From a virus: a stretch of 64,000 bases of DNA. Shown here in pieces: positions 15,737 through 59,440 of this stretch. A model generated the notes under the pieces. That model was not told the DNA's origin, searched no databases, and was given only the letters and a program-made list of their open reading frames with translations. Position numbers and translations under genes: made by a program. The stretch spans positions 1 through 64,000 of IMG/VR virus record IMGVR_UViG_3300005573_000004; one strand, given 5' to 3'. Positions within the stretch are counted from its first letter, which is position 1. Each line of letters opens with the position of its first letter.

Positions 15737-15944
15737 ACAATTTAGAGAGCATATAAACCCAGCCGTGTTCCCTTATTGCACTCTCTAAACAATGTTTGGT
15801 TTTAATCTGAATAATCTTTCCGCCAGGTGTTAAGAACTTTGCTTGTTCTATTTCATCTGGCATTACTTTTTTCCAATAGATATCAAACGGAGCTGGGTAT
15901 CCGTATGATTCTAATTGTTTTTGTATTAAGTCCTTAACGTTCAT
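15702..15944 (-). CDS. hypothetical protein
   Basis: Packed ORF, overlapping start/stop with upstream gene. Confidence 0.55.
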   Translation of the reverse strand: MNVKDLIQKQLESYGYPAPFDIYWKKVMPDEIEQAKFLTPGGKIIQIKTKHCLESAIREHGWVYMLSKLFGKETVYKVFR

Positions 15945-16132
15945 AATGTGCCTCCATCCTTCATGGTCTTTTTTATTTGCCGCATTACATCTCTGATAGC
16001 TGCTTTATAAGCATACTCCAGAGTTAATTTCTTAACAAACTTTGGGCGAACATATTTTTGCCCAAAGAATTTCATATGTTTCTTCATCCTTTCTTCTGTA
16101 GTGATTACCGGAGCATTAAAAATGTCTTTCAT
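15941..16132 (-). CDS. hypothetical protein
   Basis: AGGAGGTG RBS. Confidence 0.55.
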   Translation of the reverse strand: MKDIFNAPVITTEERMKKHMKFFGQKYVRPKFVKKLTLEYAYKAAIRDVMRQIKKTMKDGGTL

Positions 16133-16150: not shown

Positions 16151-16564
16151 TTAGTATTCACGGAAACGAACGAATTTAAATTCGCTCGTTTTAATTCCGT
16201 CTTTTTCCACAGCAATTCTTGCTGTGGTCGCTGCAACAGGAACTTTTCCCTGTGCGAGCAATTCATTTACAAGCATATGCGTCAAGGTATGTTCACCTTG
16301 AATCATAATATGCTTGTAATTATATTTATTTAATTTCTTTAATACTTTTTGAGCTAACTTTGTTACATCTTCCTTAGATGCCTCAGGTGGCACCATAGGA
16401 AAATGAATATCAACTATCTGGGATGCTACGTGAGGAGCATATCCCTCAGTAGCAATGCTGTATAATGCGTCCCTTTGTTCTTGGGACCATTTGTTGCTCG
16501 GGTGATTGCTTAAATTTATCGCAACCACCTTTAAATTGTGTTCTAATGTTAATTCTAATTCCAT
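16151..16564 (-). CDS. Csx20-like CRISPR-associated ring-nuclease homolog (candidate anti-type-III protein)
   Basis: INLSNHPS.KWS.EQ, FP.VPPEAS, IQGE.TLT..LV, PV.ATT.R, K.SEF.FVRFREY match my recollection of the Csx15/16/20 group. Confidence 0.72.
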   Translation of the reverse strand: MELELTLEHNLKVVAINLSNHPSNKWSQEQRDALYSIATEGYAPHVASQIVDIHFPMVPPEASKEDVTKLAQKVLKKLNKYNYKHIMIQGEHTLTHMLVNELLAQGKVPVAATTARIAVEKDGIKTSEFKFVRFREY

Positions 16565-16629
16565 ATTACACCTCCTTTAGTTGCCTATGTATTATTTCCC
16601 CCATAGGCAGGGGAGAATTAAGAAATAGT

Positions 16630-17106
16630 TTATTTCAATCTTACGTCAGGAAGGATCTTAACTGTGCTGTCCATCTTGACAACACAATTAATCCCCCTCT
16701 TCTGCAACGCCGGTACTAAGAGGAACATTAGCACCGGAGTGCAGTCTATGAAGGCGATTTTATCCTCGCCTTCAGATATGTTTTGTAAATATATATTATC
16801 CATTCTTTTCAGGATATCATCAACAATATCCTGAAAGAAACTATAGTAATCCCCATTGGGATCACTATAGATAACTTCACTTTCCGTCTTTTCAGACGGA
16901 AAGTAATTATACTTTGTGAAGTTAATAATCTCTACGTCATCCCATTTGGGAGTGGCGTAGAACGTAGTTGCATTATCTATGATTATCACTCCTTCCTTTC
17001 CCGTGGTTGGATCTGCTTTATCCCCCATAAAGCAGTCCAAAATTTTTTCTTTCAGCTCTGGACTCCAGCGTTCTGCTGGAGTATTTGAAAAATTAAAAAG
17101 CTTCAT
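16630..17106 (-). CDS. divergent Csx15/Csx20-like paralog, copy 1
   Basis: LFNFSNTPAERWSPE aligns to INLSNHPSNKWSQE; C-terminal AFID...LVPALQKRGI.CV aligns to MIQG...LVNELLAQGKVPV. Confidence 0.5.
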   Translation of the reverse strand: MKLFNFSNTPAERWSPELKEKILDCFMGDKADPTTGKEGVIIIDNATTFYATPKWDDVEIINFTKYNYFPSEKTESEVIYSDPNGDYYSFFQDIVDDILKRMDNIYLQNISEGEDKIAFIDCTPVLMFLLVPALQKRGINCVVKMDSTVKILPDVRLK

Positions 17107-17161
17107 ATTACACCTCCTTTAGTTGCCTATGTATTATTTCCCCCATAGGCAGGGGAGAATT

Positions 17162-17464
17162 TTATTTATTATTTAATATTAATTTCTTGACAAACATATT
17201 AAGGGCATTTACTAAATACCCTTTTAAATGCATAATATAATATGTAGCGTATTCACCTCCTTCCGATCCGAAATCAACTTTCTTTACGAAGTAAAATGGA
17301 TCCTTCAGCTGTGCTGAAGAATCCTTTACTTCTACTACTGAATATGCAGGCCCTGGAATATATATCTCACAGGGACCTGTAAATCCTAACGCTTTGGAGC
17401 CTATAATATGCTCCAAAGATTTTTGTAACTCTTCTTTGCTTGAAAATTCTTTTAATTCTATCAT
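17162..17464 (-). CDS. small early protein, family B
   Basis: Near-identical to 18568..18870; RBS and pseudoknot leader. Confidence 0.7.
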   Translation of the reverse strand: MIELKEFSSKEELQKSLEHIIGSKALGFTGPCEIYIPGPAYSVVEVKDSSAQLKDPFYFVKKVDFGSEGGEYATYYIMHLKGYLVNALNMFVKKLILNNK

Positions 17465-17523
17465 ATTACACCTCCTTTAGTTGCCTATGTATTCTTATTT
17501 CCCCCATAGGCAGGGGAGAATTT

Positions 17524-17970
17524 TTATTCCCCAAATATTTTCTTCATCAAATCAGCCACCAACTTTTTGGTGGCTTCTTCATCGTGCTTAACCCACTTGA
17601 GTGAGTTAAGCCATTTTTTGTGGAGAGCTACTTTCTTCTCCACATGTTTCTTATTCTTGTCCCCATACTCTCCTTCGTGTATGGGGACTACAGAATAAAC
17701 ATCATTCGGTAAATCTTTTATATTGATATTTTCCGGAAGATGTCCGTCATCTACGACACCTCCGGAAAATGTTTTAATCTTACAATATTGTAATACAGAG
17801 AGATTACTCTTCTCTGTATCGTATACTTCCCCTTCTTCTGTGAAGAGGGGAAACTCTACCACATCGCCTGGAGCCCAGGCGATTACTACTTCTTCCCCCT
17901 GAATATATAACTCGTGAAGAAGTTTTTGAACTTCTTCAGAGTCATAATTGTTATTTTTTAATTTTATCAT
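17524..17970 (-). CDS. hypothetical acidic early protein
   Basis: RBS and pseudoknot leader. Confidence 0.7.
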   Translation of the reverse strand: MIKLKNNNYDSEEVQKLLHELYIQGEEVVIAWAPGDVVEFPLFTEEGEVYDTEKSNLSVLQYCKIKTFSGGVVDDGHLPENINIKDLPNDVYSVVPIHEGEYGDKNKKHVEKKVALHKKWLNSLKWVKHDEEATKKLVADLMKKIFGE

Positions 17971-18035
17971 AAGACACCTCCTACAAATTTGCCTATGTAT
18001 TATATTCCCCCATAGGCAGGGGAGAATTAAGAATA

Positions 18036-18512
18036 TTATTTTAACCTTACTTCTGGTAAAACTTTAAATGTGTTGTCAAAACGGACAACACATTTAATTT
18101 CTCTTCTCTGCAACGCCGGTACTAAGAAGAACATCAGTACCGGAGTGCAGTCTATGAAGGCGATTTTATCCTCGCCTTCAGATATGTTTTGTAAATATAT
18201 ATTATCCATTCTTTTCAGGATATCATCAACAATATCCTGAAAGAAACTATAGTAATCCCCATTGGGATCACTATAGATAACTTCACTTTCCGTCTTTTCA
18301 GACGGAAAGTAATTATACTTTGTGAAGTTAATAATCTCTACGTCATCCCATTTGGGAGTGGCGTAGAACGTAGTTGCATTATCTATGATTATCACTCCTT
18401 CCTTTCCCGTGGTTGGATCTGCTTTATCCCCCATAAAGCAGTCCAAAATTTTTTCTTTCAGCTCTGGACTCCAGCGTTCTGCTGGAGTATTTGAAAAATT
18501 AAAAAGCTTCAT
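18036..18512 (-). CDS. divergent Csx15/Csx20-like paralog, copy 2
   Basis: Identical to 16630..17106 except in the last ~30 aa. Confidence 0.5.
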   Translation of the reverse strand: MKLFNFSNTPAERWSPELKEKILDCFMGDKADPTTGKEGVIIIDNATTFYATPKWDDVEIINFTKYNYFPSEKTESEVIYSDPNGDYYSFFQDIVDDILKRMDNIYLQNISEGEDKIAFIDCTPVLMFFLVPALQRREIKCVVRFDNTFKVLPEVRLK

Positions 18513-18567
18513 ATTACACCTCCTTTAGTTGCCTATGTATTATTTCCCCCATAGGCAGGGGAGAATT

Positions 18568-18870
18568 TTATTTATTATTTAATATTAATTTCTTGACAAA
18601 CATATTAAGGGCATTTACTAAATACCCTTTTAAATGCATAATATAATATGTAGCGTATTCACCTCCTTCCGATCCGAAATCAACTTTCTTTACGAAGTAA
18701 AATGGATCCTTCAGCTGTGCTGAAGAATCCTTTACTTCTACTACTGAATATGCAGGCCCTGGAATATATATCTCACAGGGACCTGTAAATCCTAACGCTT
18801 TGGAGCCTATAATATGCTCCAAAGATTTTTGTAACTCTTCAACTGTGTTAAATTCTTTTAATTCTATCAT
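18568..18870 (-). CDS. small early protein, family B
   Basis: Duplicate of 17162..17464, offset 1406 bp. Confidence 0.7.
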   Translation of the reverse strand: MIELKEFNTVEELQKSLEHIIGSKALGFTGPCEIYIPGPAYSVVEVKDSSAQLKDPFYFVKKVDFGSEGGEYATYYIMHLKGYLVNALNMFVKKLILNNK

Positions 18871-18977
18871 ATTACACCTCCTTTTATAGCCTATGTATTA
18901 TTTCCCCCATAGGCAGGGGAGAATTTTTTTGCCTATAAATATTTTAGCTTCCTATAGGCAGGAAGCTAAACGAATTA

Positions 18978-19262
18978 TTAGAGATTACCCGCTAATAATT
19001 CGTTTAAAAATATCGTATTAGCATACTCTACGTTCCCTTTTACATAGATAATAGAGAACGTAACCTCTTCATAAGAGGCTTTCTTCACTATATAAAATTT
19101 ATGCTTCAATAATAAAGCTTCTTCATTTGCGTATTCTAATGCCCCGGCAATCCCTTGAACATAGATGCTTTCATCTTCCTTTTGAGAGGCGATAGCCTCT
19201 TTTAAGGAAGCTAGCAACTCTGGCATACCTGATACTTCTTTTACTTTAACATCTACATGCAT
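18978..19262 (-). CDS. small early protein, family B
   Basis: EL..SL...I.S, IY..G.A, LK..FY.VKK, I...KG motifs shared with 17162..17464. Confidence 0.65.
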   Translation of the reverse strand: MHVDVKVKEVSGMPELLASLKEAIASQKEDESIYVQGIAGALEYANEEALLLKHKFYIVKKASYEEVTFSIIYVKGNVEYANTIFLNELLAGNL

Positions 19263-19442
19263 ACGATGCCTCCTTTCATAGCCTATGTATTCTTATTTCC
19301 CCCATAGGCAGGGGAAAATTTAAATCCCCTTTAGGCGGGGTCAAAGAACTTTTGGAAGCGGAGAGTCTATGCTCCCCGCTTCCAAATAGCCTACGTATAT
19401 TTTAGCTCCCCCGTAGGCTGGGAGCTTAAGGAACTAATGTTC

Positions 19443-19859
19443 TTATTTTTTGGACATTAGTTCCTTAAGCTTTTTTTCCTCCTGCTCCCGCCTATTGGAG
19501 CGGTTTTTGTCAATTGCCTCTTTTAAAACTGGGAGGCTTGCCTCCCAGTTTATCCCTCCCCAACTATATTCATTAGCTAAGGCCATAATGGTCTTAGCTA
19601 CCTTGTCGGAATCAATACATTCCGACAAATTAGTAAAAATCCTGATATGGGGAACTCTGTTCCCCATATCCTCAAAAATCACCAAGGCGTTCCATGACAC
19701 CTTGGTGATTATCTCTTTCACCTTGGCGGGGGTATCAAGACCCCACCAAGTAAGATTTAAGAATTCCCCGCCTTTGACGAGGAATTCATTTCTTCTGGCA
19801 TATGGGTTTCCTCCCCATACGCCTTCCATTTGGTCTACCAATATAAATTTGGATTCCAT
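19443..19859 (-). CDS. hypothetical early protein
   Basis: RBS and pseudoknot leader. Confidence 0.7.
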   Translation of the reverse strand: MESKFILVDQMEGVWGGNPYARRNEFLVKGGEFLNLTWWGLDTPAKVKEIITKVSWNALVIFEDMGNRVPHIRIFTNLSECIDSDKVAKTIMALANEYSWGGINWEASLPVLKEAIDKNRSNRREQEEKKLKELMSKK

Positions 19860-20081
19860 AACACACCTCCTTTTATAGCCTATGTATTATATTCCCCCAT
19901 AGGCAGGGGAAGATTTTTCTTGCTTGTTGTTTTTTTACAAGGGGAGCAAGAGCCCCTTGCAAGCCTATATTTTAGGGGCTGGCTTGATGCCCCTTTGGGG
20001 GCGAGAATCAGGGACTTCTGCCCCCAAATAGCCTACGTATGTTTTAGCTCCCCGTAGGCGGGGAGCTACAAAATAACAGGG

Positions 20082-20261
20082 TTATTTCTTTATTTCAAAC
20101 CCTGTTATTTTGTATTTCTGAAGCTGGGCAGGAGCATCTGCCCAGCTCCATAATTTACCCGCAAGGGTAACAGATCCACCCCTGTGGGTAAAAACTATCT
20201 GTTGCACAGGCTTCCCTGTAGCCTGTGCCTTTTTAATGATTCTTAAATTATTCTTCGTCAT
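20082..20261 (-). CDS. 59-aa basic protein (not in ORF track), copy 1
   Basis: AAAGGAGGTGA RBS then MTKNNLRIIKKAQATGKPVQQIVFTHRGGSVTLAGKLWSWADAPAQLQKYKITGFEIKK*. Confidence 0.6.
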   Translation of the reverse strand: MTKNNLRIIKKAQATGKPVQQIVFTHRGGSVTLAGKLWSWADAPAQLQKYKITGFEIKK

Positions 20262-20446
20262 CTGTAATCACCTCCTTTCTTTTAATGAATAGTAGGCTCG
20301 GTTGCTCAAGCCGAGCCTACTTAAAACAAATCCCCTTTAGGCGGGGTCAAAAGAGCGTGTAGAGGCAGGGAGCATAAGCTCCCCTGCCTCTAAGAGCCTA
20401 CGTATATTTTGGCTCCCCGTAGGCGGGGAGTATAAATAAGGTCATT

Positions 20447-20764
20447 CTATTTTTTTAGAATGACCTTATTTATTAAGAATTCTATGGCACTATTTAAAAA
20501 TTCCGGCTTTGTAATAACTTCAAAGCCTGAGTCCATTATTTCATCATCCTGGTAGATCCTCTCTACCAGGAAATAATTTATTTTATCAGTCATTATTATT
20601 ATTTTATCTTTTTCCTCAGAGGAGGAAAAAGATAAAATTTTTTCCATACAGTCCTCTATGAGGACTGTATTATGTTCCCACCAACGGTGGGAATCTATCA
20701 GCCCAACCTTTTGGTTGGATAGCAAATCTTTAATGTCGTTTGAAACTTTTACTTTTACATACAT
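20447..20764 (-). CDS. small early protein (distant family B), copy 1
   Basis: Paralog of 21363..21680; RBS and pseudoknot leader. Confidence 0.7.
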   Translation of the reverse strand: MYVKVKVSNDIKDLLSNQKVGLIDSHRWWEHNTVLIEDCMEKILSFSSSEEKDKIIIMTDKINYFLVERIYQDDEIMDSGFEVITKPEFLNSAIEFLINKVILKK

Positions 20765-21004
20765 AATTACCTCCTATAAGTGCCTATGTATTATATTCCC
20801 CCATAGGCAGGGGAAATTTTTCCTACTCTAACCCGGTAGGACGGGCTTGCCTATGTTTTACAAGGAAGGCAAGCTCCTTGCAAGCCTTTTTAGTTTAGGG
20901 GCAGGCTTGTAGCCCCTTTGGGGGCGAGAATCAGGGACTTCTGCCCCCAAATAGCCTACGTATGTTTTAGCTCCCCGTAGGCGGGGAGCTACAAAATAAC
21001 AGGG

Positions 21005-21184
21005 TTATTTCTTTATTTCAAACCCTGTTATTTTGTATTTCTGAAGCTGGGCAGGAGCATCTGCCCAGCTCCATAATTTACCCGCAAGGGTAACAGATCC
21101 ACCCCTGTGGGTAAAAACTATCTGTTGCACAGGCTTCCCTGTAGCCTGTGCCTTTTTAATGATTCTTAAATTATTCTTCGTCAT
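21005..21184 (-). CDS. 59-aa basic protein, copy 2
   Basis: Duplicate of 20082..20261. Confidence 0.6.
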   Translation of the reverse strand: MTKNNLRIIKKAQATGKPVQQIVFTHRGGSVTLAGKLWSWADAPAQLQKYKITGFEIKK

Positions 21185-21362
21185 CTGTAATCACCTCCTT
21201 TCTTTTAATGAATAGTAGGCTCGGTTGCTCAAGCCGAACCTACAAAATCCCTTTTAAGCAGGGTCAAAGAACTTTTAGAAGCGGAGAGTCTATGCTCCCC
21301 GCCTCCAAATAGCCTACGTATGTTTATACTCCCCGTAGGCGGGGAGTATAAATAAGGTCATT

Positions 21363-21680
21363 CTATTTTTTTAGAATGACCTTATTTATTAGGAATTCTA
21401 AGGCACTTTCTAAAAACTCAGGCTTTGTAATAACTTCAAAGCCGGAATCAGTTTCTTCATTATCATCCTGGTAGATCCTCTCTACCAGGAAATAATTTAA
21501 TTTATCAGTCATTATTATTTTATCTTTATCCTCCTCTGAGTAGGAGGATAAAACTCCTCCATCGCAATCTACGTAGTATATTGTATTATGTTCCCACCAA
21601 CGGTTGGAACCTGTCATTCCAACCTTTTGGTTGGATAGCAAATCTTTAATGTCGTTTGAAACTTTTACTTTTACATACAT
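21363..21680 (-). CDS. small early protein (distant family B), copy 2
   Basis: Paralog of 20447..20764. Confidence 0.7.
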   Translation of the reverse strand: MYVKVKVSNDIKDLLSNQKVGMTGSNRWWEHNTIYYVDCDGGVLSSYSEEDKDKIIMTDKLNYFLVERIYQDDNEETDSGFEVITKPEFLESALEFLINKVILKK

Positions 21681-21867
21681 ATTACACCTCCTTTTATAGC
21701 CTATGTATTATATTCCCCCATAGGCAGGGGAGAATTTTTTCTTGCTTTTTGTTTTTACAAGGGGAGCAAGAGCCCCTTGAGAGTCTATATTTTATGGAGC
21801 GGACTCAACGCTCCATTTTTTTTTATCACCTCCTTTCTTTATGCTTCCTTGCAAAAGCAAGGAAGCA

Positions 21868-21980
21868 TTTATTATAATATATAGATAATATATTATATTA
21901 TTATAATATATTATCTATATATTATCTATATATTATATTATTATAATATTATATTATTATAATATTATTATTATTTTAAT
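21868..21980. repeat. almost pure A/T, partly palindromic tract
   Basis: TATTATATTATTATAA-type repeats with only a few G/C. Confidence 0.8.
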
Positions 21981-22052
21981 TCTCATAAGAGAAGAAGAAA
22001 GAGTTGATGATGGCCGTAGAATCCGCTATATATCCCCTTCAAAACCAGGAGA

Positions 22053-22252
22053 ATTTTGGAATTTAGGGTCCCCTGGAACCCAAAATTTTCTATAGGAAAA
22101 ATTTTTGGAATTTAGGGTCCCCTGGAACCCAAAATTTTCTATAGGAAAAATTTTTGGAATTTAGGGTCCCCTTTAACCTAAAAATTTCTATAGGAAAAAT
22201 TTTAGGGTCCCCCTGAACCGAAAATTTTCTATAGGAAAAATTTTTGGAATTT
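22053..22252. repeat. four tandem ~49-bp repeats
   Basis: GGGTCCCC cores at 22066, 22115, 22164, 22205, each followed by AAAA(T/A)TTTCTATAGGAAAAATTTT. Confidence 0.9.
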
Positions 22253-22275
22253 CCGCCCCCATAATTACTCCATAC

Positions 22276-22347
22276 CGTGAATACTGTGAATACTGTGAAT
22301 ACTGTGGATAATGTGTATAATGTGTATAATGTGAATAATGTGAATAA
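22276..22347 (-). promoter_or_regulatory. head-to-tail DnaA-box array
   Basis: TTATCCACA (22303-22311), TTATACACA x2, TTATTCACA x2, plus three degenerate boxes, all abutting at 9-bp period. Confidence 0.75.
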
Positions 22348-22479: not shown

Positions 22480-22761
22480 TCAGTTTTCAAAAATTTTTAT
22501 AAAGGGATAAATTATAAAAGCTATTCCTAAAAATCCTATTATAAAAGAAACAACAAGTCCTAACAATTTTAAAGAAGATTCTAACCCAACTATAAAATTA
22601 TGATAAAAATCACAACACGGTAATGACCAAACGTGCCCACAATTCCAAAATCCTATTACAATACTTCCTAAAATAATTGCAATAGTTAATAAAATTAACC
22701 CTTTCGCTATATACATCATATACATCAATTGATAGATACCAAAATTAATTTTGTTTTTCAT
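22480..22761 (-). CDS. two-TM membrane protein
   Basis: Two long hydrophobic segments. Confidence 0.6.
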   Translation of the reverse strand: MKNKINFGIYQLMYMMYIAKGLILLTIAIILGSIVIGFWNCGHVWSLPCCDFYHNFIVGLESSLKLLGLVVSFIIGFLGIAFIIYPFIKIFEN

Positions 22762-23087
22762 TTTGTACCTTCCTTTCTGTATATTAGCCCTTTTCCATAT
22801 TTTTTGGCAATTTTTATTTCACGTTTCATGCCTTCTGTTATCCCTTTTTCGTTGTTTATATATACCATATCACAAATAGATACTAATTGTCCACAAAAAC
22901 TTAAAATTCTTTCCCTGGTCTTTTCATCCTCTTTTTCTATGAAACTAAAATTTAAATGAGGAATTACAGGTATATAGTTCAAACCTAAATCAAAAATTTC
23001 TTTACCTAATTTCTTGGCTATTTCTATATTCTTTTTTATACCTTTTTTGGTTTTTGCACTATATGGACTACAAATATAAACTAGCAT
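22758..23087 (-). CDS. DUF4406-like / nucleoside 2-deoxyribosyltransferase-fold protein
   Basis: VYICSPYS, P..PHL, CD.V, GM..EI..A motifs. Confidence 0.7.
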   Translation of the reverse strand: MLVYICSPYSAKTKKGIKKNIEIAKKLGKEIFDLGLNYIPVIPHLNFSFIEKEDEKTRERILSFCGQLVSICDMVYINNEKGITEGMKREIKIAKKYGKGLIYRKEGTK

Positions 23088-23088
23088 A

Positions 23089-23472
23089 TTATATCTCCTG
23101 ATTTTTGGGCAAATCCATAGTTCCTCTATTTAGTTCAAGCGTTGTTCTTATTTTTGCTTCTAGTTTGTCACTTAAATAATAAAAAGCTGCCCAGGGGTCT
23201 GTTTCTTCACCACACGTGAAAAGATCAACTGCAGCATAACCGTGCTCCGGCCATGTATGTATAGCAAGATGCGATTCCGCCACAACTACTACTCCACTCA
23301 CTCCGTGCGGACTGAATTTGTGGAATACTACCTGCACAATCGTAGACTTAGACTCCTTCGCCGCCTCTGTCATCGCCTCTTCAATAAATTTTAAATCGTT
23401 CAACTTCTTTTTATTACACCCGTAAAATTCAACTAGTAAATGCTTTCCCAAACTTTTCAATTTAAGGTTCAC
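23089..23472 (-). CDS. speH: S-adenosylmethionine decarboxylase proenzyme
   Basis: [35 protein letters not shown] (E-SH autocleavage site), DLFTCG. Confidence 0.93.
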
Positions 23473-41567: not shown

Positions 41568-42266
41568 TCAATCTAATATTTCTAATTTTTGAACATTATT
41601 TTTAATAGTTTCAGCTAAATCTTGCATTTCTTGCTTTGTATAAGAATGATATTTAGACCATTCTGGATCAAGTGTAGTTATTGGTCTAAACGCTTGCAAA
41701 ACATAAAGTTTTGCCCCAATTATTATAGTGCTAATGTTATAAATATCTACATCAGTATGAAATTCTTTAATTAAGGTTGTACGAAATTGATAATCTATAT
41801 TAGATTGTTTTAATAAAGCAATAGATTCTAAAATTTTTGTAGTATCTATTTTTATACCAGCTGCTTGACTATATTTTTCGTCATTTAAAGGGTCTTGTTT
41901 AATATCCATAGCTATATAATCAACTAAATTACTATTTAATAATTTAAGCAGCATTTCTGGGTTATATCCATTAGTATCTAATTTTATAGATAACCCAAGG
42001 TCTCTAACTTTTTTTAAAAAATCTAAGATATCTTTTTGAATAGTAGGTTCTCCTCCAGAAATTACTAAACCTTCTATTAGTTTAGAACGAGATTTTAATA
42101 TTGATAAGATTTGGTCTTCTGACGAAATTTCAGTTTTATAATTTACCAATTCATAGTTCTGACAGAACGGACATTTAAAATTACATCCAGGAGTAAATAC
42201 GACAATTGATATCTTATCTGGATAATCTATGGAGGAACTTGGTATAATCCCACCAAACTGCATCAT
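41568..42266 (-). CDS. nrdG: anaerobic RNR activating radical-SAM protein
   Basis: GCNFKCPFCQN, ISGGEPT, KLDTNG; adjacent to nrdD. Confidence 0.92.
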   Translation of the reverse strand: MMQFGGIIPSSSIDYPDKISIVVFTPGCNFKCPFCQNYELVNYKTEISSEDQILSILKSRSKLIEGLVISGGEPTIQKDILDFLKKVRDLGLSIKLDTNGYNPEMLLKLLNSNLVDYIAMDIKQDPLNDEKYSQAAGIKIDTTKILESIALLKQSNIDYQFRTTLIKEFHTDVDIYNISTIIIGAKLYVLQAFRPITTLDPEWSKYHSYTKQEMQDLAETIKNNVQKLEILD

Positions 42267-45262
42267 TTATCATCTCCTTCCTGCAATTTTCTTAACTCTT
42301 CCTCTAAAGCCTTTTTCTCTTCTAAACATTTTGGACATACGCTATGCTCTCCTGAAATATACCCGTGTTTTGGACAAATACTAAATGTAGGCGTAATTGA
42401 TATATAGGGTAAATTATATTTTTCAAATATTTTCTTTACCAACAATTTTGCTTGCTTTGCTACTAATCTTTCTCCGGTATATATGTGCAATACCGTTCCA
42501 CCAGTATATGAAGATTGAATTTTATCTTGGTGTTCAAGTACTGTTGCTATATCATTTGTGAAATTAACTGGTAGCATAGTTGAATTAGTAAAGTATGGAG
42601 TATCTTTACCAGAAGTAAAAATTTTAGAACTCCGTCTTTTAGCAGCAAGAGCTAATTTATAAGATGCTCCTTCAGCTGGAGTAGCCTCTAGATTATAAAA
42701 GTTTTTAGTTTCATTTTGAAATTCTAATAATTTTTTATTCATAAATGCTAATACTCTTTCAGCTAATTTTTTACCTTCTTCGGTTTCATATTTAATTCCT
42801 AACATTTGTGCCGCTTCATACATTCCAATTATACCTATAGTTGAAAAATGGTTTGCCCAATACCGACCATCACGTAACTTTACGTTTTTTAGATAATGCT
42901 TTGAATAAGGATATAGTCCTTTCTCAGTTAATTCTTCTAATACCTTTCTTTTTGCTTCCAATGCTTCTTTTGCAATTATCATATATTTCTCTATGCCTGT
43001 AAAAAATTTATCAATAGAACCATTAGCATCATAAGCAATCATCGGTAAACTCAAAGTTATAACACCAATACTTCCTGTTAATGACCCAGACCCAAATAAT
43101 CCTCCACCACGTTTATGTAATTCCTTTAATGATAGTCTTAATCTACAATTGTGCGTAAGAGTTCCGACTCTACCTACTGTAAATAAATGGTCATCTGTAT
43201 CTACTTCTAAACAATAAGCATCTTCAATACGATCTAAATCTTTAATTGATTCTATACGTATCCATAATTTGTTTTCACGTTTAAATACTATGTCTTTACT
43301 GTATTTTTTATTTGATTGGTATAATGAAACAGTATATTTTGTTTTTGAAAAAATATTTTTATTAGTAACATTTTCTACAAACGTAGTAGTTCCTAAAGAT
43401 GCGGCTATTAAATTCAACATTTCTACCATCTTAGATGAAGATGTATGAATTTTGTCTCCGCCATATGTATCAAAATGTCCATCAATCAGTCCTTGTCTAA
43501 ACTCAGCAGAAGTATTCAATACTGATGGAAGATAGTATTTATCTTGTCTAATTCCACCTACATAATCTCTACATAGACCAACTGCAGCTTTGGATTTAAT
43601 ATTTAAACTAATAGAATTTCCAGAATCATTTACATTAACTTCTGATCCCCATAAATTTTTTGAAATTATAAAATCGCGTATTTTTTGTAATATCTTTGAA
43701 CTTATATTTTTATTTAATATAAAAGTTAAACTGGAGTCTCCTTGACAGAATCCTGATCCAGCATAACATCCGACAAAATATCCTAATTCATATGTACCAC
43801 CATCTCCTGGTAGGACCTCCAACGAATATGGTAGATACATTCCAGGTTTTAACTCATTTGTAGGTAGTGTAATAGATTTTTTACTTTTATTATTTTGCAT
43901 TACCAAATTAGCGTGGTCGTTGGATGTAACTAGTTTATGTCCGTTTGCTAAAGTAATTTCAACCATTTTTTTACCTTCAAATTTATTTACCCTTGCAGGA
44001 ACGTATTTATTACCAGATAGTACTTGAATTTCTTTTCCACTATAAGAGTTATAATATAAATCTTTTATTGTAGATATTTTTACACCATAGTCGCCTTTAG
44101 ACTTGTAAACTATCAATTCATTCTTTTCTAAAGGACACATTGACCTAGCATCCTCTGGACTTAAGTCTGAATTAATAAAATTTGCAAAATATGGAAGTCC
44201 ATATTTCGCCGTTGCTTCCCATAAGATATCTAAATTTGGATTATCCCAATCAAAATTTTTATCTATATTTATAGTTGGAATAGGAAAAGTAAATATTCTT
44301 CCGTGTGCATCTCCTTCTATCATAACTTCAAAGAACGCTCTATTAAACATATCCATCTCTTTCTGAAATTCCTTAAAAGTCTCTTTTTGATATTGTCCAC
44401 CAATTATTACTGGTTGATCCGCTAAATGTTTTGGAACTACTAAATCTAAGGTTATATTACTAAAAGGTGTTTGCCCACCAACTCTTGTCGGTACGTTCAT
44501 ATTGAATACAAAATTCTGCATAGCTTGTTTTACTTCTTTATAAGTCAATTTGTCATAATAAATAAATGGAGCTAAATATGTATCAAAATTTGAAAAAGCT
44601 TGAGCTCCACTAGATTCGTTTTGTAATGTAAATATGAAATTAACTGCTTGTCCTAATGCTGTATCAAAATGTTTTGGAGGTGCTGAATACACCTTTCCTG
44701 GAACGCCTCCAAATCCTTGAAGTAGTAAGTCCTGAATATCCCAACCTACACAATACACTGAAAACGAGTCTAAATCGTGAATATGCATATATCCCTCTTT
44801 ATATGCAGTTGTAGCCTTTTGCGGATAATATAATTCCAACCATTGTTTTTCAATTACCGCTCTAACTATGGCGTTATTAAGACCTTGTAACGAATAACTC
44901 ATATTTGCATTTTCATTTATTTCCCATGAGTCTTTATTTATGTATTTTGTAAAAACTTGTCTTAGTCCAGCTGGAGTTTGTATAGCATTTTGTAGTTGAC
45001 GCTGATATCTGTATTTTATATAAGCCCTAGCTACATGAAATAATTTATTTGACATAAGTACATCTTCTATGGTTTCTTCTACTTCATCTTTTGAAATTAT
45101 TTCTTTTTCCAAATTTTTTAATTTTTGAGTAACTTTGTCCGCCAATTCTTTAACCATATCTGGTATTAGTACATTTCCAGATGCTTGAAAGGCTTTTTCA
45201 ATTGATTCTACAACCAAAGCTTTGTCGTATTCTACTATTCCGCGTTTAGTTTCTATTTTCAT
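42263..45262 (-). CDS. nrdD: class III ribonucleotide reductase with ATP cone and intein
   Basis: HIHDL, RSMC/CRL finger loop split by an intein, EATPAEG, YTGGTVLH, FSICPKHGY...CPKC. Confidence 0.93.
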   Translation of the reverse strand: MKIETKRGIVEYDKALVVESIEKAFQASGNVLIPDMVKELADKVTQKLKNLEKEIISKDEVEETIEDVLMSNKLFHVARAYIKYRYQRQLQNAIQTPAGLRQVFTKYINKDSWEINENANMSYSLQGLNNAIVRAVIEKQWLELYYPQKATTAYKEGYMHIHDLDSFSVYCVGWDIQDLLLQGFGGVPGKVYSAPPKHFDTALGQAVNFIFTLQNESSGAQAFSNFDTYLAPFIYYDKLTYKEVKQAMQNFVFNMNVPTRVGGQTPFSNITLDLVVPKHLADQPVIIGGQYQKETFKEFQKEMDMFNRAFFEVMIEGDAHGRIFTFPIPTINIDKNFDWDNPNLDILWEATAKYGLPYFANFINSDLSPEDARSMCPLEKNELIVYKSKGDYGVKISTIKDLYYNSYSGKEIQVLSGNKYVPARVNKFEGKKMVEITLANGHKLVTSNDHANLVMQNNKSKKSITLPTNELKPGMYLPYSLEVLPGDGGTYELGYFVGCYAGSGFCQGDSSLTFILNKNISSKILQKIRDFIISKNLWGSEVNVNDSGNSISLNIKSKAAVGLCRDYVGGIRQDKYYLPSVLNTSAEFRQGLIDGHFDTYGGDKIHTSSSKMVEMLNLIAASLGTTTFVENVTNKNIFSKTKYTVSLYQSNKKYSKDIVFKRENKLWIRIESIKDLDRIEDAYCLEVDTDDHLFTVGRVGTLTHNCRLRLSLKELHKRGGGLFGSGSLTGSIGVITLSLPMIAYDANGSIDKFFTGIEKYMIIAKEALEAKRKVLEELTEKGLYPYSKHYLKNVKLRDGRYWANHFSTIGIIGMYEAAQMLGIKYETEEGKKLAERVLAFMNKKLLEFQNETKNFYNLEATPAEGASYKLALAAKRRSSKIFTSGKDTPYFTNSTMLPVNFTNDIATVLEHQDKIQSSYTGGTVLHIYTGERLVAKQAKLLVKKIFEKYNLPYISITPTFSICPKHGYISGEHSVCPKCLEEKKALEEELRKLQEGDDK
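43148..44137 (-). mobile_element. 330-aa intein with LAGLIDADG-type endonuclease remnant
   Basis: Starts CPL, block-B T.DH, LGYFVGCYAGSG and GLIDGHFDTYG helices, ends LTHN followed by Cys+1. Confidence 0.9.
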
Positions 45263-56935: not shown

Positions 56936-59440
56936 ATGTTTGAAAATTTCAAATGTGAAAAATGTGAGCTTCATAAAGTAAAATTGAATTATGTATTACC
57001 ACACGGTAATATTAACGGTCGTATTCTAATCATAGGTGAAGCTCCAGGGCGTGAAGAAGATAGAGAGGGAAAGCCGTTTGTAGGTCCTTCTGGGGCTTTA
57101 TTACGTGAAGCTTTAGACAAAGCAGGCATTTCAATTTCAGACATTAATATTACAAACACAATAATGTGTAGGCCGCCGAATAATCGTCAGCCTATGAAAG
57201 AAGAATTAGAAGCGTGTAAAGAACACTGGCAAGCTGTTATTGCTGCAATGCCTAATCTTCAATTGATTATTCTTTTGGGTGCTATTGCGGTTCAAGCTGT
57301 GCTCAAACAGAAAAATATTATGGACAAACGTGGGACAATAATTAAGAAAGACGGAAGAGATTTTCTTCCAATTTTACATCCTGCAGCAATTTTAAGAGAT
57401 CCAAACAAGAAAGAGATGTTCTTTAGAGATTTTGTTTTTGCGAAAAATTATATTGAAAAATCCTTCCAAGTCGGAGAATATAAACTTTGCAATACTCTTG
57501 AACTAGCTAATAATGCTCTTGATCTTATTCAGGATAAAGAATATATAGCATTTGATATTGAGACATCTGCTATAGATGAGGATGAACCGAATTTAGCAAA
57601 TGATGAGATTATTGGAGTATCATTTACCTCAGAGCCATATAGGGGTTATTATATTCCATTTATTAGTGCTAACACCCAAGTTTTTTCAGATGAGCAAAAA
57701 ACTCATATTGTAAATAGACTACGTGATATACTTACGCATCCGAAAAAGAAATTGATATTGCATAATGGAAAATTTGATGCTAACTTTTTGAAGGCAAAAT
57801 TTAACATAGATATTGTAAAATTTTTTAAAAGAGACGATGGTTCTTTAGGAACAAATTTATATTTTGATACTATGCTTGCTCATCATTTACTTTGGCAAGC
57901 TCCACCACACGGGTTAAAATTCTTATCTAGAATTTATCCAGATTTAGCATATTATGAATCAGAACTCAAGGAGTATAAAGACAAAAATAAGATTAAGAAT
58001 TATGCTATGATTCCACAAGACGTTATGTATAAATATGCAGCTACTGATGCTGATGCGACGATACGTTTATTTTATAAATATTGGGAAGAGCTTTCCCAGA
58101 AAAATTTGCTTGGGCTCTTTTTTACTGCTGTTATGCCTTTAGTTCCTGTTTTATGTCAAGCAGAATATTATGGAGCTAAAATAGATAAAAAGGCGTTATT
58201 GGATTTAAAAGTTATTTTAGAAAACAAGATAAAAACTTTAGAAAAAGAAATTTATGAATTAGCTGGAGAGGAATTTAATATTAACTCCCCAATTCAAAAG
58301 GCAAAAATTTTATACGAAAAATTAGGTATTCCGAAACCGAAGAATAGAACCAAAAAGAGTGGGAGTCTTCCTACTGATAAAGAAACTTTATCAAAGATTG
58401 ACCATCCTATTGTTACAAAGTTGATAGAATATGCTCACGAAACTAAAATGAAATCTACATATGTTGATAGTTTATTAGAAAAAGCAGATCGTTTAGACAG
58501 AATCCATACTAATTATAAACAGCACGGAACAGCCACTGGGCGTCTGAGTTCATCCCAGCCTAATTTACAAAATATTCCTGCTGAGAAACAATATCGTCAA
58601 ATCTTTATATCTGAAAAAGGATATTCATTGGTAGGTTCAGATTTTTCTCAGATAGAATTAAGAGTTTTGGCTAGAGTATCACAGGATCCGAAATTATTAC
58701 AAGCATTTATGAACGGAGAAGATATTCACGACCAAGTAGCAAGAGAAATTTTTAATATTCCTCCGGAAGAAAAAGTTCCCAAAGATATACGTCGTGTAGC
58801 TAAAACTATTAATTTTGGAATTGTATATGGTATTCAAGCCCAAGCTCTTTCAAAGCAAATTAATAGTGACGAAGGTACTGCTCAGGAATATATTAATAGA
58901 TATTTATACAAATATCGTAAGGTTGCAGAGTTCCAGGAATATATTAAGGCTTTTGTACGTGAGCATAAATTTGTAAAGAATATTTTTGGACGTATACATC
59001 ATATTCCAGAAATAGATTCTCCAGATAGATTTATTCAGGGTGAAGCAGAACGAACAGCTTTAAATAGTCCTATTCAAGGAAGTGCAGCAGAAATAACTAA
59101 TGCAAGTGCAGTTCAAATATATTTAGCTTTTGAAAGAGAAAATATTGATGCAAAACTTGTGTTGACTGTACACGACGAGCTTGTATATGAAGTAAAGAAT
59201 GAACAAGTAATTAGAGCAGCTACAATAATTTATAATACTATGAGGTCTATTGCGGAACATCATCTTAAAATACCAGTTCCAGTTGATCAATATGTAAATG
59301 ACAAATGGCTGGAACACGATATTGATGATCATAAATTTCCAGCTTTACATCAAGCAAGATATTTACGTAAGATAGGAATTAAGGCTCGTGATTTTTATAA
59401 TATTCCGAAGGGATATATATCTGCAATTCCCAGAGGATGA
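56936..59440 (+). CDS. polA: family A DNA polymerase with N-terminal family-4 uracil-DNA glycosylase and 3'-5' exonuclease
   Basis: C..C.L, GEAPG, PFVG.SG, CRPP.NR, HPA; FDIET, HN.KFD, YA..D; TGRLSS..PNLQN, DFSQIELR, R..AK..NFG..YG, VHDE. Confidence 0.95.
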   Translation: MFENFKCEKCELHKVKLNYVLPHGNINGRILIIGEAPGREEDREGKPFVGPSGALLREALDKAGISISDINITNTIMCRPPNNRQPMKEELEACKEHWQAVIAAMPNLQLIILLGAIAVQAVLKQKNIMDKRGTIIKKDGRDFLPILHPAAILRDPNKKEMFFRDFVFAKNYIEKSFQVGEYKLCNTLELANNALDLIQDKEYIAFDIETSAIDEDEPNLANDEIIGVSFTSEPYRGYYIPFISANTQVFSDEQKTHIVNRLRDILTHPKKKLILHNGKFDANFLKAKFNIDIVKFFKRDDGSLGTNLYFDTMLAHHLLWQAPPHGLKFLSRIYPDLAYYESELKEYKDKNKIKNYAMIPQDVMYKYAATDADATIRLFYKYWEELSQKNLLGLFFTAVMPLVPVLCQAEYYGAKIDKKALLDLKVILENKIKTLEKEIYELAGEEFNINSPIQKAKILYEKLGIPKPKNRTKKSGSLPTDKETLSKIDHPIVTKLIEYAHETKMKSTYVDSLLEKADRLDRIHTNYKQHGTATGRLSSSQPNLQNIPAEKQYRQIFISEKGYSLVGSDFSQIELRVLARVSQDPKLLQAFMNGEDIHDQVAREIFNIPPEEKVPKDIRRVAKTINFGIVYGIQAQALSKQINSDEGTAQEYINRYLYKYRKVAEFQEYIKAFVREHKFVKNIFGRIHHIPEIDSPDRFIQGEAERTALNSPIQGSAAEITNASAVQIYLAFERENIDAKLVLTVHDELVYEVKNEQVIRAATIIYNTMRSIAEHHLKIPVPVDQYVNDKWLEHDIDDHKFPALHQARYLRKIGIKARDFYNIPKGYISAIPRG

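Follow-up and report, generated by a model that had tools for sequence, protein, structure and literature searches.

The locus considered here raises the question of whether a small phage gene encodes a ring nuclease of the Csx20 type, and whether the phage would use such a protein against the type III CRISPR defense of its host. An earlier note on this DNA had recognized motifs of small proteins from type III CRISPR loci in a minus-strand open reading frame at 16151..16564, and had proposed that the product degrades cyclic oligoadenylate (cOA). The gene encodes 137 aa (P0001) and is treated below as a canonical member of the Csx20/MJ1673 family, and as a candidate both for a cA4 ring nuclease and for an anti-CRISPR of type III systems. 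Its source is a closed single IMG/VR virus record of 149,961 bp with 32% GC, rated 100% complete; the window analyzed here is the first 64 kb of that record.

AcrIII-1 is the best-known viral ring nuclease. It is a cA4 phosphodiesterase that works as a dimer and independently of metal, clearing the second messenger of type III systems (PMC12409355), and AcrIII-2/Crn5 is another viral ring nuclease (PMC13148439). The cellular Csx20 characterized by Hoikkala et al. (2025; PMC12409355) degraded cA4 fully, cA3 at high enzyme concentration only, and cA6 not at all. A survey of the Millard database, covering 28,114 genomes of phages, found Csx20 in 4, Csx16 in 2 and AcrIII-1 in 36 (PMC12409355). Homologues of csx20 have since been described in acr-type operons under the RHH regulator Aca14, and were proposed to be co-opted for counter-defense (NAR 2026; PMC13551039). 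The idea of phage Csx20 as an anti-CRISPR is already in print (PMC12409355, PMC13551039) and is not new here; what is new is a pair of neighboring, degenerate Csx20 copies without the conserved residues.

The 137-aa protein and its family

The open reading frame and all of the motifs claimed in the earlier note were found on the minus strand at 16151-16564. The sequence NLSNHPSNKWSQEQ makes up residues 17-30, IQGE residues 88-91, ATTAR residues 112-116, and FKFVRFREY residues 129-137, the C-terminus. These motifs fall on invariant columns of the Csx20 alignment, arguing that they are not a matter of chance. The start codon is ATG, with a strong Shine-Dalgarno sequence, AAAGGAGG, upstream at 16571-16578 and at optimal spacing.

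The earlier note's assignment to a Csx20-type family is borne out by profile searches, by the homologues and by conservation. The PADLOC Csx20 profile (PDLC01397) matches the protein with E 3.6e-28, residues 16-137 aligning with positions 3-114 of its 114, and the PADLOC profile for CARF-HEPN-Csx20 fusions matches with E 1.1e-22; the match to the PADLOC Csx15/20 profile (E 3e-13) is far weaker than that to the Csx20 profile. The NCBIfam profile CAS_Csx20 (NF040559) gives E 3.4e-12 and 46.8 bits, which is under its 70-bit equivalog cutoff. This score weakens the claim that the protein is an equivalog rather than the claim of family membership, and the viral group has diverged from the CRISPR-linked seed sequences. 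Homologues in a collection of 5.8 billion proteins all carry the newer Pfam family PF27247 'MJ1673' (as a precomputed annotation in the close ones). By exhaustive HMMER search the family comprises 1594 cluster representatives at E<=1e-3, many of them located at the C-terminus of larger proteins (500-600 aa) that are fusions of an effector with a ring nuclease.

An HMM built from 26 homologues scores the 137-aa protein at 149.7 bits. In the 26-sequence alignment the protein keeps all 18 invariant columns (I16, N17, L18, S19, N20, H21, W26, D52, F55, P56, G90, E91, R116, F129, F131, F134, R135 and Y137 in its own numbering) and all 5 near-invariant ones. The Csx20 motifs are thereby all represented: INLSNHP..W after beta1, D..FP, GE after beta3, TT.R, and the terminal F.FVRFR.Y. 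A Pfam profile set gave no match because PF27247 is absent from the set searched. PHROGs likewise gave no match for the protein, and among INPHARED phages neither the region nor the protein had a counterpart at the DNA or the protein level. Judged by its sequence, the 137-aa protein is a true member of the Csx20/MJ1673 family.

Two further points of the earlier note concern neighboring families. The separateness of AcrIII-1/DUF1874 holds up, the 137-aa protein being unrelated to it by sequence and the whole genome having no match to DUF1874 (PF08960) at E<=1. The grouping of Csx15, Csx16 and Csx20 as ring nucleases stands for Csx20, for which the activity is confirmed (PMC12409355), and only partly for Csx15, which binds cA4 well but is very slow as a nuclease (PMC13148439).

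The AlphaFold2 model of the protein, calculated on the 26-sequence alignment, has a pLDDT of 90.6 and a pTM of 0.80. Its elements (beta1 13-19, alpha1 28-38, beta2 48-54, alpha2 64-78, beta3 85-88, alpha3 92-104, beta4 108-121 and beta5 124-136) run in the CARF-like order beta-alpha-beta-alpha-beta-alpha-beta-beta, forming a five-stranded sheet with flanking helices. This order places the invariant S19-N20-H21 of the model in the beta1-alpha1 loop, the 'motif I' position that holds the catalytic His13 in Csx15 and an important Ser in Crn1 (PMC13148439). The viral group has a helix of about 13 residues at the N-terminus (pLDDT about 52) and an insertion of about 10 residues after alpha1, both of which are missing in cellular members.

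A profile or structural comparison with the Csx20 group had been suggested as a check on the assignment, and its outcome was mixed. In addition to the PADLOC match, the model matches an MJ1673 cluster of the ESM Atlas (TM 0.81/0.89), in which 50% of the taxon-labelled members are viral, as well as further largely viral clusters; the Foldseek comparison with the PDB gave no match at E<=1e-3. A sequence search of the PDB with the family profile returned nothing meaningful (the best match was ribosomal protein S6, E 0.11), and by sequence the PDB yielded no Csx20 structure and no significant match to solved CARF structures. Exhaustive alignment of the model against the PDB with VIA-align gave middling scores, with CARF and SAVED domains prominent but mixed with generic Rossmann-like folds. 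Matches included the SAVED-CHAT protein 8tl0 (Z 6.4, rmsd 3.2 A, 97 residues aligned), Cap5 7rwk (Z 5.7, rmsd 4.3, 105 aligned), Csm6 9w3u (Z 5.5, rmsd 5.1, 121 aligned) and Csx1-Crn2 8y7g (Z 5.2, rmsd 3.9, 105 aligned). These structural matches of the model agree with the CARF-like character described for Csx20 (PMC12409355), without being decisive.

The homodimer model of the protein scored 0.78, as against 0.00 for the best of three controls, with 100% contact agreement between runs and a partner pLDDT of at least 88. Among benchmark proteins of solved structure, 20 of 30 pairs of one chain attained this mark, as did 1 of 23 single chains; these counts hold only approximately, since an alignment made for this analysis was used. 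The complex model favors the binding of two copies as a symmetric homodimer, and so supports such a dimer without showing it. The predicted symmetric interface consists of residues 58-67, 89-100, 111-115 and 132-137, with G90, T113-A115 and the VRFREY strand at the terminus all inside it. Such a pattern is to be expected if the conserved face spanned the two-fold axis, as in CARF dimers.

Genomic setting and relatives

The whole 150-kb genome has a single canonical Csx20 gene. The statement in the earlier note that no cas genes or array occur in the window holds within what was searched: no Cas10/Csm1 profile match above cutoff was found in the whole genome, and no CRISPR-like tandem array in the 64-kb window. 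A 20-bit Csm1 match at 86702-87034, outside the window, was rejected as a Cas10 because it covers the HD region only. No CARF or cOA-responsive effector and no cyclase was found in the phage. The 137-aa gene is outside any type III CRISPR-Cas locus, as one would expect of a co-opted copy.

Among the products of the genome are an intein-containing NrdD, GroEL, a UDG-PolA fusion, DnaB and a helicase of the SNF2 type, and no close cultured relative of the phage was found. The anaerobic ribonucleotide reductase NrdD (42263-45262, minus strand; 999 aa) has an ATP-cone, and its intein lies at about residues 394-705. The family A DNA polymerase (56936-59440, plus strand) has an N-terminal domain of the uracil-DNA glycosylase superfamily fused to the 3'-5' exonuclease and polymerase domains. 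At 22758-23472 (minus strand) a DUF7768 protein (SLOG/deoxyribosyltransferase-like, E 1.4e-18) adjoins a homologue of S-adenosylmethionine decarboxylase (E 7e-44), and DUF7768 is also present in two related phage contigs (L004 and L005). The 'direct terminal repeat' of the record is exact and only 121 bp long (1-121 and 149841-149961); with so short a repeat, it is probably an overlap from circular assembly rather than biological terminal redundancy. An analogy to the terminal host-takeover module of SPO1-type phages was dropped for this reason.

The closest relatives of the 137-aa protein (P0002-P0005, P0037 and P0038; 54-96% identity) are all encoded in phage-like contigs, one of them 97.9 kb long, where the neighboring genes include ERF, PD-(D/E)XK, methyltransferase, SLT, ParB and GH108 endolysin. 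Comparison of the gene with its orthologues gives dN/dS values of 0.17-0.24, indicating purifying selection. Two related contigs (L100:68-457 and L102:275-661) have a further canonical Csx20, which is 128-129 aa long, shares about 39% identity with the 137-aa type and is absent from the 149,961-bp genome. The copy number of Csx20 thus varies within the phage lineage.

When one genome was taken per prokaryotic species, cellular relatives were found at 235 loci, mostly in Bacteroidota and Ignavibacteriota with some in Bacillota, and the best identity was 45%. The sampled cellular copies lie by type III genes. In one contig (L007) the cellular relative adjoins a RAMP gene and two Card1 genes; in a Melioribacter sp., a Cas10-like match is found 15 kb from Csx20 (E 9.4e-15), although at 54 bits it is weak and under the 170-bit cutoff. 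A different arrangement was seen in a bacterial contig, where a tandem double MJ1673/Csx20 protein of 293 aa (P0039; L018:8001-8882) is encoded amid helicase, MZB, NERD and Vsr genes, with sortase/pilin genes nearby. These surroundings resemble a defense island and have no visible cas genes.

In a quick tree the 137-aa protein groups with other phage-context sequences, with SH-aLRT values of 80-91 that are not strong. Two other IMG/VR copies of Csx20 are found elsewhere in the tree, which suggests more than one capture by phages. The phage group lies beside Csx20 sequences of Bacillota; this placement was dropped as host evidence, as its SH-aLRT values are 80-91 and none is starred. Other proteins of this phage pointed to no particular host. 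TnpB has one relative only, 53% identical, and for PolA the identity to phages, Herelleviridae-like ones and others, is about 30%. GroEL is at best about 55% identical to proteins in phage records; its identities in 301 genomes (one Bacillota-centered phylum draw) are all 55-60%, with no outlier.

The cassette array and the degenerate paralogues

The 137-aa gene is preceded by a 65-nt intergenic leader (16565..16629, minus strand) that holds the Shine-Dalgarno sequence AAAGGAGG (16571-16578) and a conserved hairpin, GCCTATG...CATAGGC, at 16583-16608. Ahead of the hairpin stands CTCCCC, a potential pairing partner for the GGGGGA of its loop. The leader has 4 exact copies in the window, where 0 are expected. 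Between 16.5 and 21.7 kb, small genes follow one another with a conserved leader of some 58 nt upstream of each, about 10 copies in all, which has CTCCCC, the GCCTATG-loop-CATAGGC hairpin and AAAGGAGG. All are on the minus strand within 16562-21735, starting near 16619, 17161, 17519, 18025, 18567, 18925, 19320, 19914, 20818 and 21735, and the Csx20 gene is the last of the roughly 10 leader-bearing cassettes. In a genome-wide pattern search, the motif was confined to 16.5-23.5 kb apart from a single site near 129 kb. The minimum-free-energy fold contains the hairpin, with an energy z of only -1.5, no better than shuffles; the signal is one of conservation and not of folding energy. The leader might act in translation or stability, or might be a site of processing, and early expression of the array, though putative, is plausible.

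Several features of the array and its surroundings have been recorded. Directly upstream of the array, 21869-22347 consists of an AT-rich tract followed by four 49-nt direct repeats or iterons (22054-22252) and 9-nt repeats (22277-22347), a candidate origin or control region. Within the array, a tandem duplication of about 1.4 kb (16630-17464 and 18036-18870) comprises a pair of genes for 158 aa and 100 aa, with the copies 92-97% identical, and a 148-aa gene (17524-17970) lies between the two copies. Three small proteins of 100, 100 and 94 aa (17162-17464, 18568-18870 and 18978-19262, minus strand) are paralogous, with about 30% identity between the two types, and are conserved in the related contig L100. 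They have no match in Pfam or PHROGs, and an Atlas search with the 100-aa protein gave no usable match. Downstream, 18 nt after the Csx20 stop codon, a lysine/arginine-rich ORF of 63 aa (15941-16132, minus strand) has no family match. It keeps its place after Csx20 in three related contigs, including L100:2927-3118 (94% identity) and L103:937-1128. No RHH or Aca gene was recognized next to the 137-aa gene.

The two 158-aa genes of the duplication (copy a, 16630..17106; copy b, 18036..18512, within repeat family D5; both minus strand) encode proteins that are 94% identical to each other and that have no family match in the Pfam, NCBIfam, PHROGs or PADLOC profiles. Their relationship to Csx20 is seen in several comparisons. 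When all ORFs of the genome were searched with the canonical Csx20 HMM, the two copies ranked second and third (E 4e-4 and 2e-3), with noise at 0.1 or above. In the reciprocal search from the 158-aa proteins, the 137-aa protein ranked next (E 0.039). BLASTP aligned the 158-aa proteins over nearly their full length with the canonical 129-aa phage Csx20 of contig L100 (L100:68-454; E 5e-7 to 5e-8, in a small search), and hhalign paired their residues 104-144 with the beta3-alpha3-beta4 region of the family at 94.6% probability. The N-terminal sequence FNFSNTPAERWS aligns to INLSNHPSNKWS, and the joint alignment with Csx20 is collinear. Language-model neighbors of the 158-aa protein all belong to MJ1673 clusters (score 0.80), a result to be taken as a lead only. 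The 158-aa genes are syntenic with Csx20 in three related contigs; the order in L100 is Csx20-129, 159, 94, 158, 102, Csx20-137, 63, 52, ankyrin.

Relative to the 137-aa protein, the 158-aa proteins show the changes H21->T, D52->N, G90-E91->D-C and R116->K. They also have an insertion of about 45 residues, and have lost the C-terminal hairpin, which in the 137-aa protein contributes to the predicted interface of the dimer. The AlphaFold2 model is poor (pLDDT 46.5), and so no fold is claimed for these paralogues. The 158-aa genes are thus Csx20-derived and depleted of the conserved residues, yet with dN/dS values of 0.24-0.27 they are kept by purifying selection.

It is conceivable, and proposed here tentatively, that the phage lineage has made Csx20 into an evolving gene family, with one predicted catalytic copy (and a second canonical one of 129 aa in relatives) and duplicated 158-aa derivatives. 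The derivatives could bind cOA without catalysis (as sponges for another ring size), serve as decoys, or be modulating partners of the catalytic copy or of a host CARF protein. If this were true, it would amount to a mixed nuclease-plus-sponge anti-signalling module, which has not been described for ring nucleases. The residue-depleted paralogues also constitute a natural experiment on which residues serve binding and which cleavage.

Proposed role and comparison with known systems

We consider it probable that the 137-aa gene encodes a functional Csx20-family protein that cleaves host cA4 as a homodimer and would thus be a type III anti-CRISPR. Cleavage of cA4 is inferred from homology to the enzyme assayed in PMC12409355. 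Because the Csx20 family has a confirmed cA4 ring nuclease and the phage has no type III genes, an anti-CRISPR role is the most likely one for the phage protein. In the mechanism envisaged, a small protein with a CARF-like, Rossmann-derived fold would most likely form a symmetric homodimer. Its two-fold axis would be lined by the beta1-alpha1 loop (S19-N20-H21), G90-E91 after beta3, T113-T114/R116 and the C-terminal FVRFREY strand. There, cA4 would bind and be cut to linear products. By destroying the cA4 that host Cas10 makes on infection, the phage would keep CARF effectors (such as Csm6/Csx1, Can2 or Card1) from ever being activated, and the result would be a type III anti-CRISPR that acts like AcrIII-1 with another fold. 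A literature search turned up no assay of any phage Csx20 and no Csx20 catalytic residues defined by mutagenesis.

One might instead suppose that the 137-aa protein is mainly a cOA sponge, or a very slow nuclease like Csx15, and that it would hold the signal captive instead of turning it over at speed. The related small CARF protein Csx15 is indeed a good cA4 binder that cleaves very slowly, and phage sponges are common against other cyclic-nucleotide defenses, although type III systems have been argued to make too much cOA for good sponging (PMC13148439). In addition, the two Csx20 paralogues retained by this phage are depleted of conserved residues and could do no more than bind. The 137-aa protein, however, keeps every invariant residue of a family whose tested member fully degrades cA4, and we regard the sponge or slow nuclease as unlikely.

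It is likewise improbable that the target is another oligoadenylate-signalling defense, for example a CBASS that makes cA3 and has a NucC-like or SAVED effector, or both this and type III. The assayed Csx20 prefers cA4, even though it degraded cA3 at higher enzyme concentration (PMC12409355), and in cells the family occurs in type III loci and in fusions with CARF-HEPN effectors. The best structural neighbors of the 137-aa model do include SAVED domains of CBASS effectors (8tl0, Z 6.4; 7rwk, Z 5.7), but with Z scores that are within the range of a common fold. A passenger gene, or a role internal to the phage such as adenine nucleotide binding in phage metabolism or regulation of a phage protein, might be suggested by the lack of assigned function among the neighboring genes, but is very improbable given purifying selection, ligand-site residues that are all conserved in several lineages of phages, the apparent repeated capture of the family by unrelated phages, and the finding of no CARF or cOA-responsive effector or cyclase in the phage.

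A type III anti-CRISPR that cleaves cA4 remains the preferred reading of the 137-aa gene. If phages are shown to deploy Csx20, the set of anti-type III tools would be wider, and this would help to explain the diversification of type III signals and effectors. The gene is a good candidate for such a test, being highly conserved, carried by a complete genome, and accompanied by several phage orthologues for comparison.

Among known systems, stand-alone Csx20 (NF040559; PF27247) shares with the 137-aa protein its sequence family, length class and invariant residues; the layout modelled for the 137-aa protein is a five-stranded sheet between helices, and a homodimer is predicted for it. The 137-aa protein differs in being phage-encoded without a type III locus, and its group, made up of phage sequences only, has an additional N-terminal helix and an insertion after alpha1; its identity to the cellular Csx20s sampled does not exceed 45%, and it falls under the NCBIfam equivalog cutoff. 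With the published phage and mobile-element csx20 genes (PMC12409355, PMC13551039) it shares the proposal itself, that of a cas-derived ring nuclease co-opted for counter-defense. In contrast to the csx20-aca14 operons (PMC13551039), no RHH or Aca gene was recognized beside it, and the setting is instead a leader-bearing cassette array with two degenerate paralogues. Crn1 (Sso2081-type), Csx15 and Csx16 have a CARF-like, Rossmann-derived fold, as predicted for the 137-aa protein, and the functional residue of the beta1-alpha1 loop is a Ser in Crn1 and His13 in Csx15, with the invariant S19/H21 in this position in the 137-aa protein; the likeness to these proteins is bounded by the lack of a significant sequence match to solved CARF structures and by structural scores that are middling. 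Finally, AcrIII-1/Crn2 (DUF1874, PF08960) has the same mode of action as that proposed for the 137-aa protein, and belongs to a different family with a different fold.
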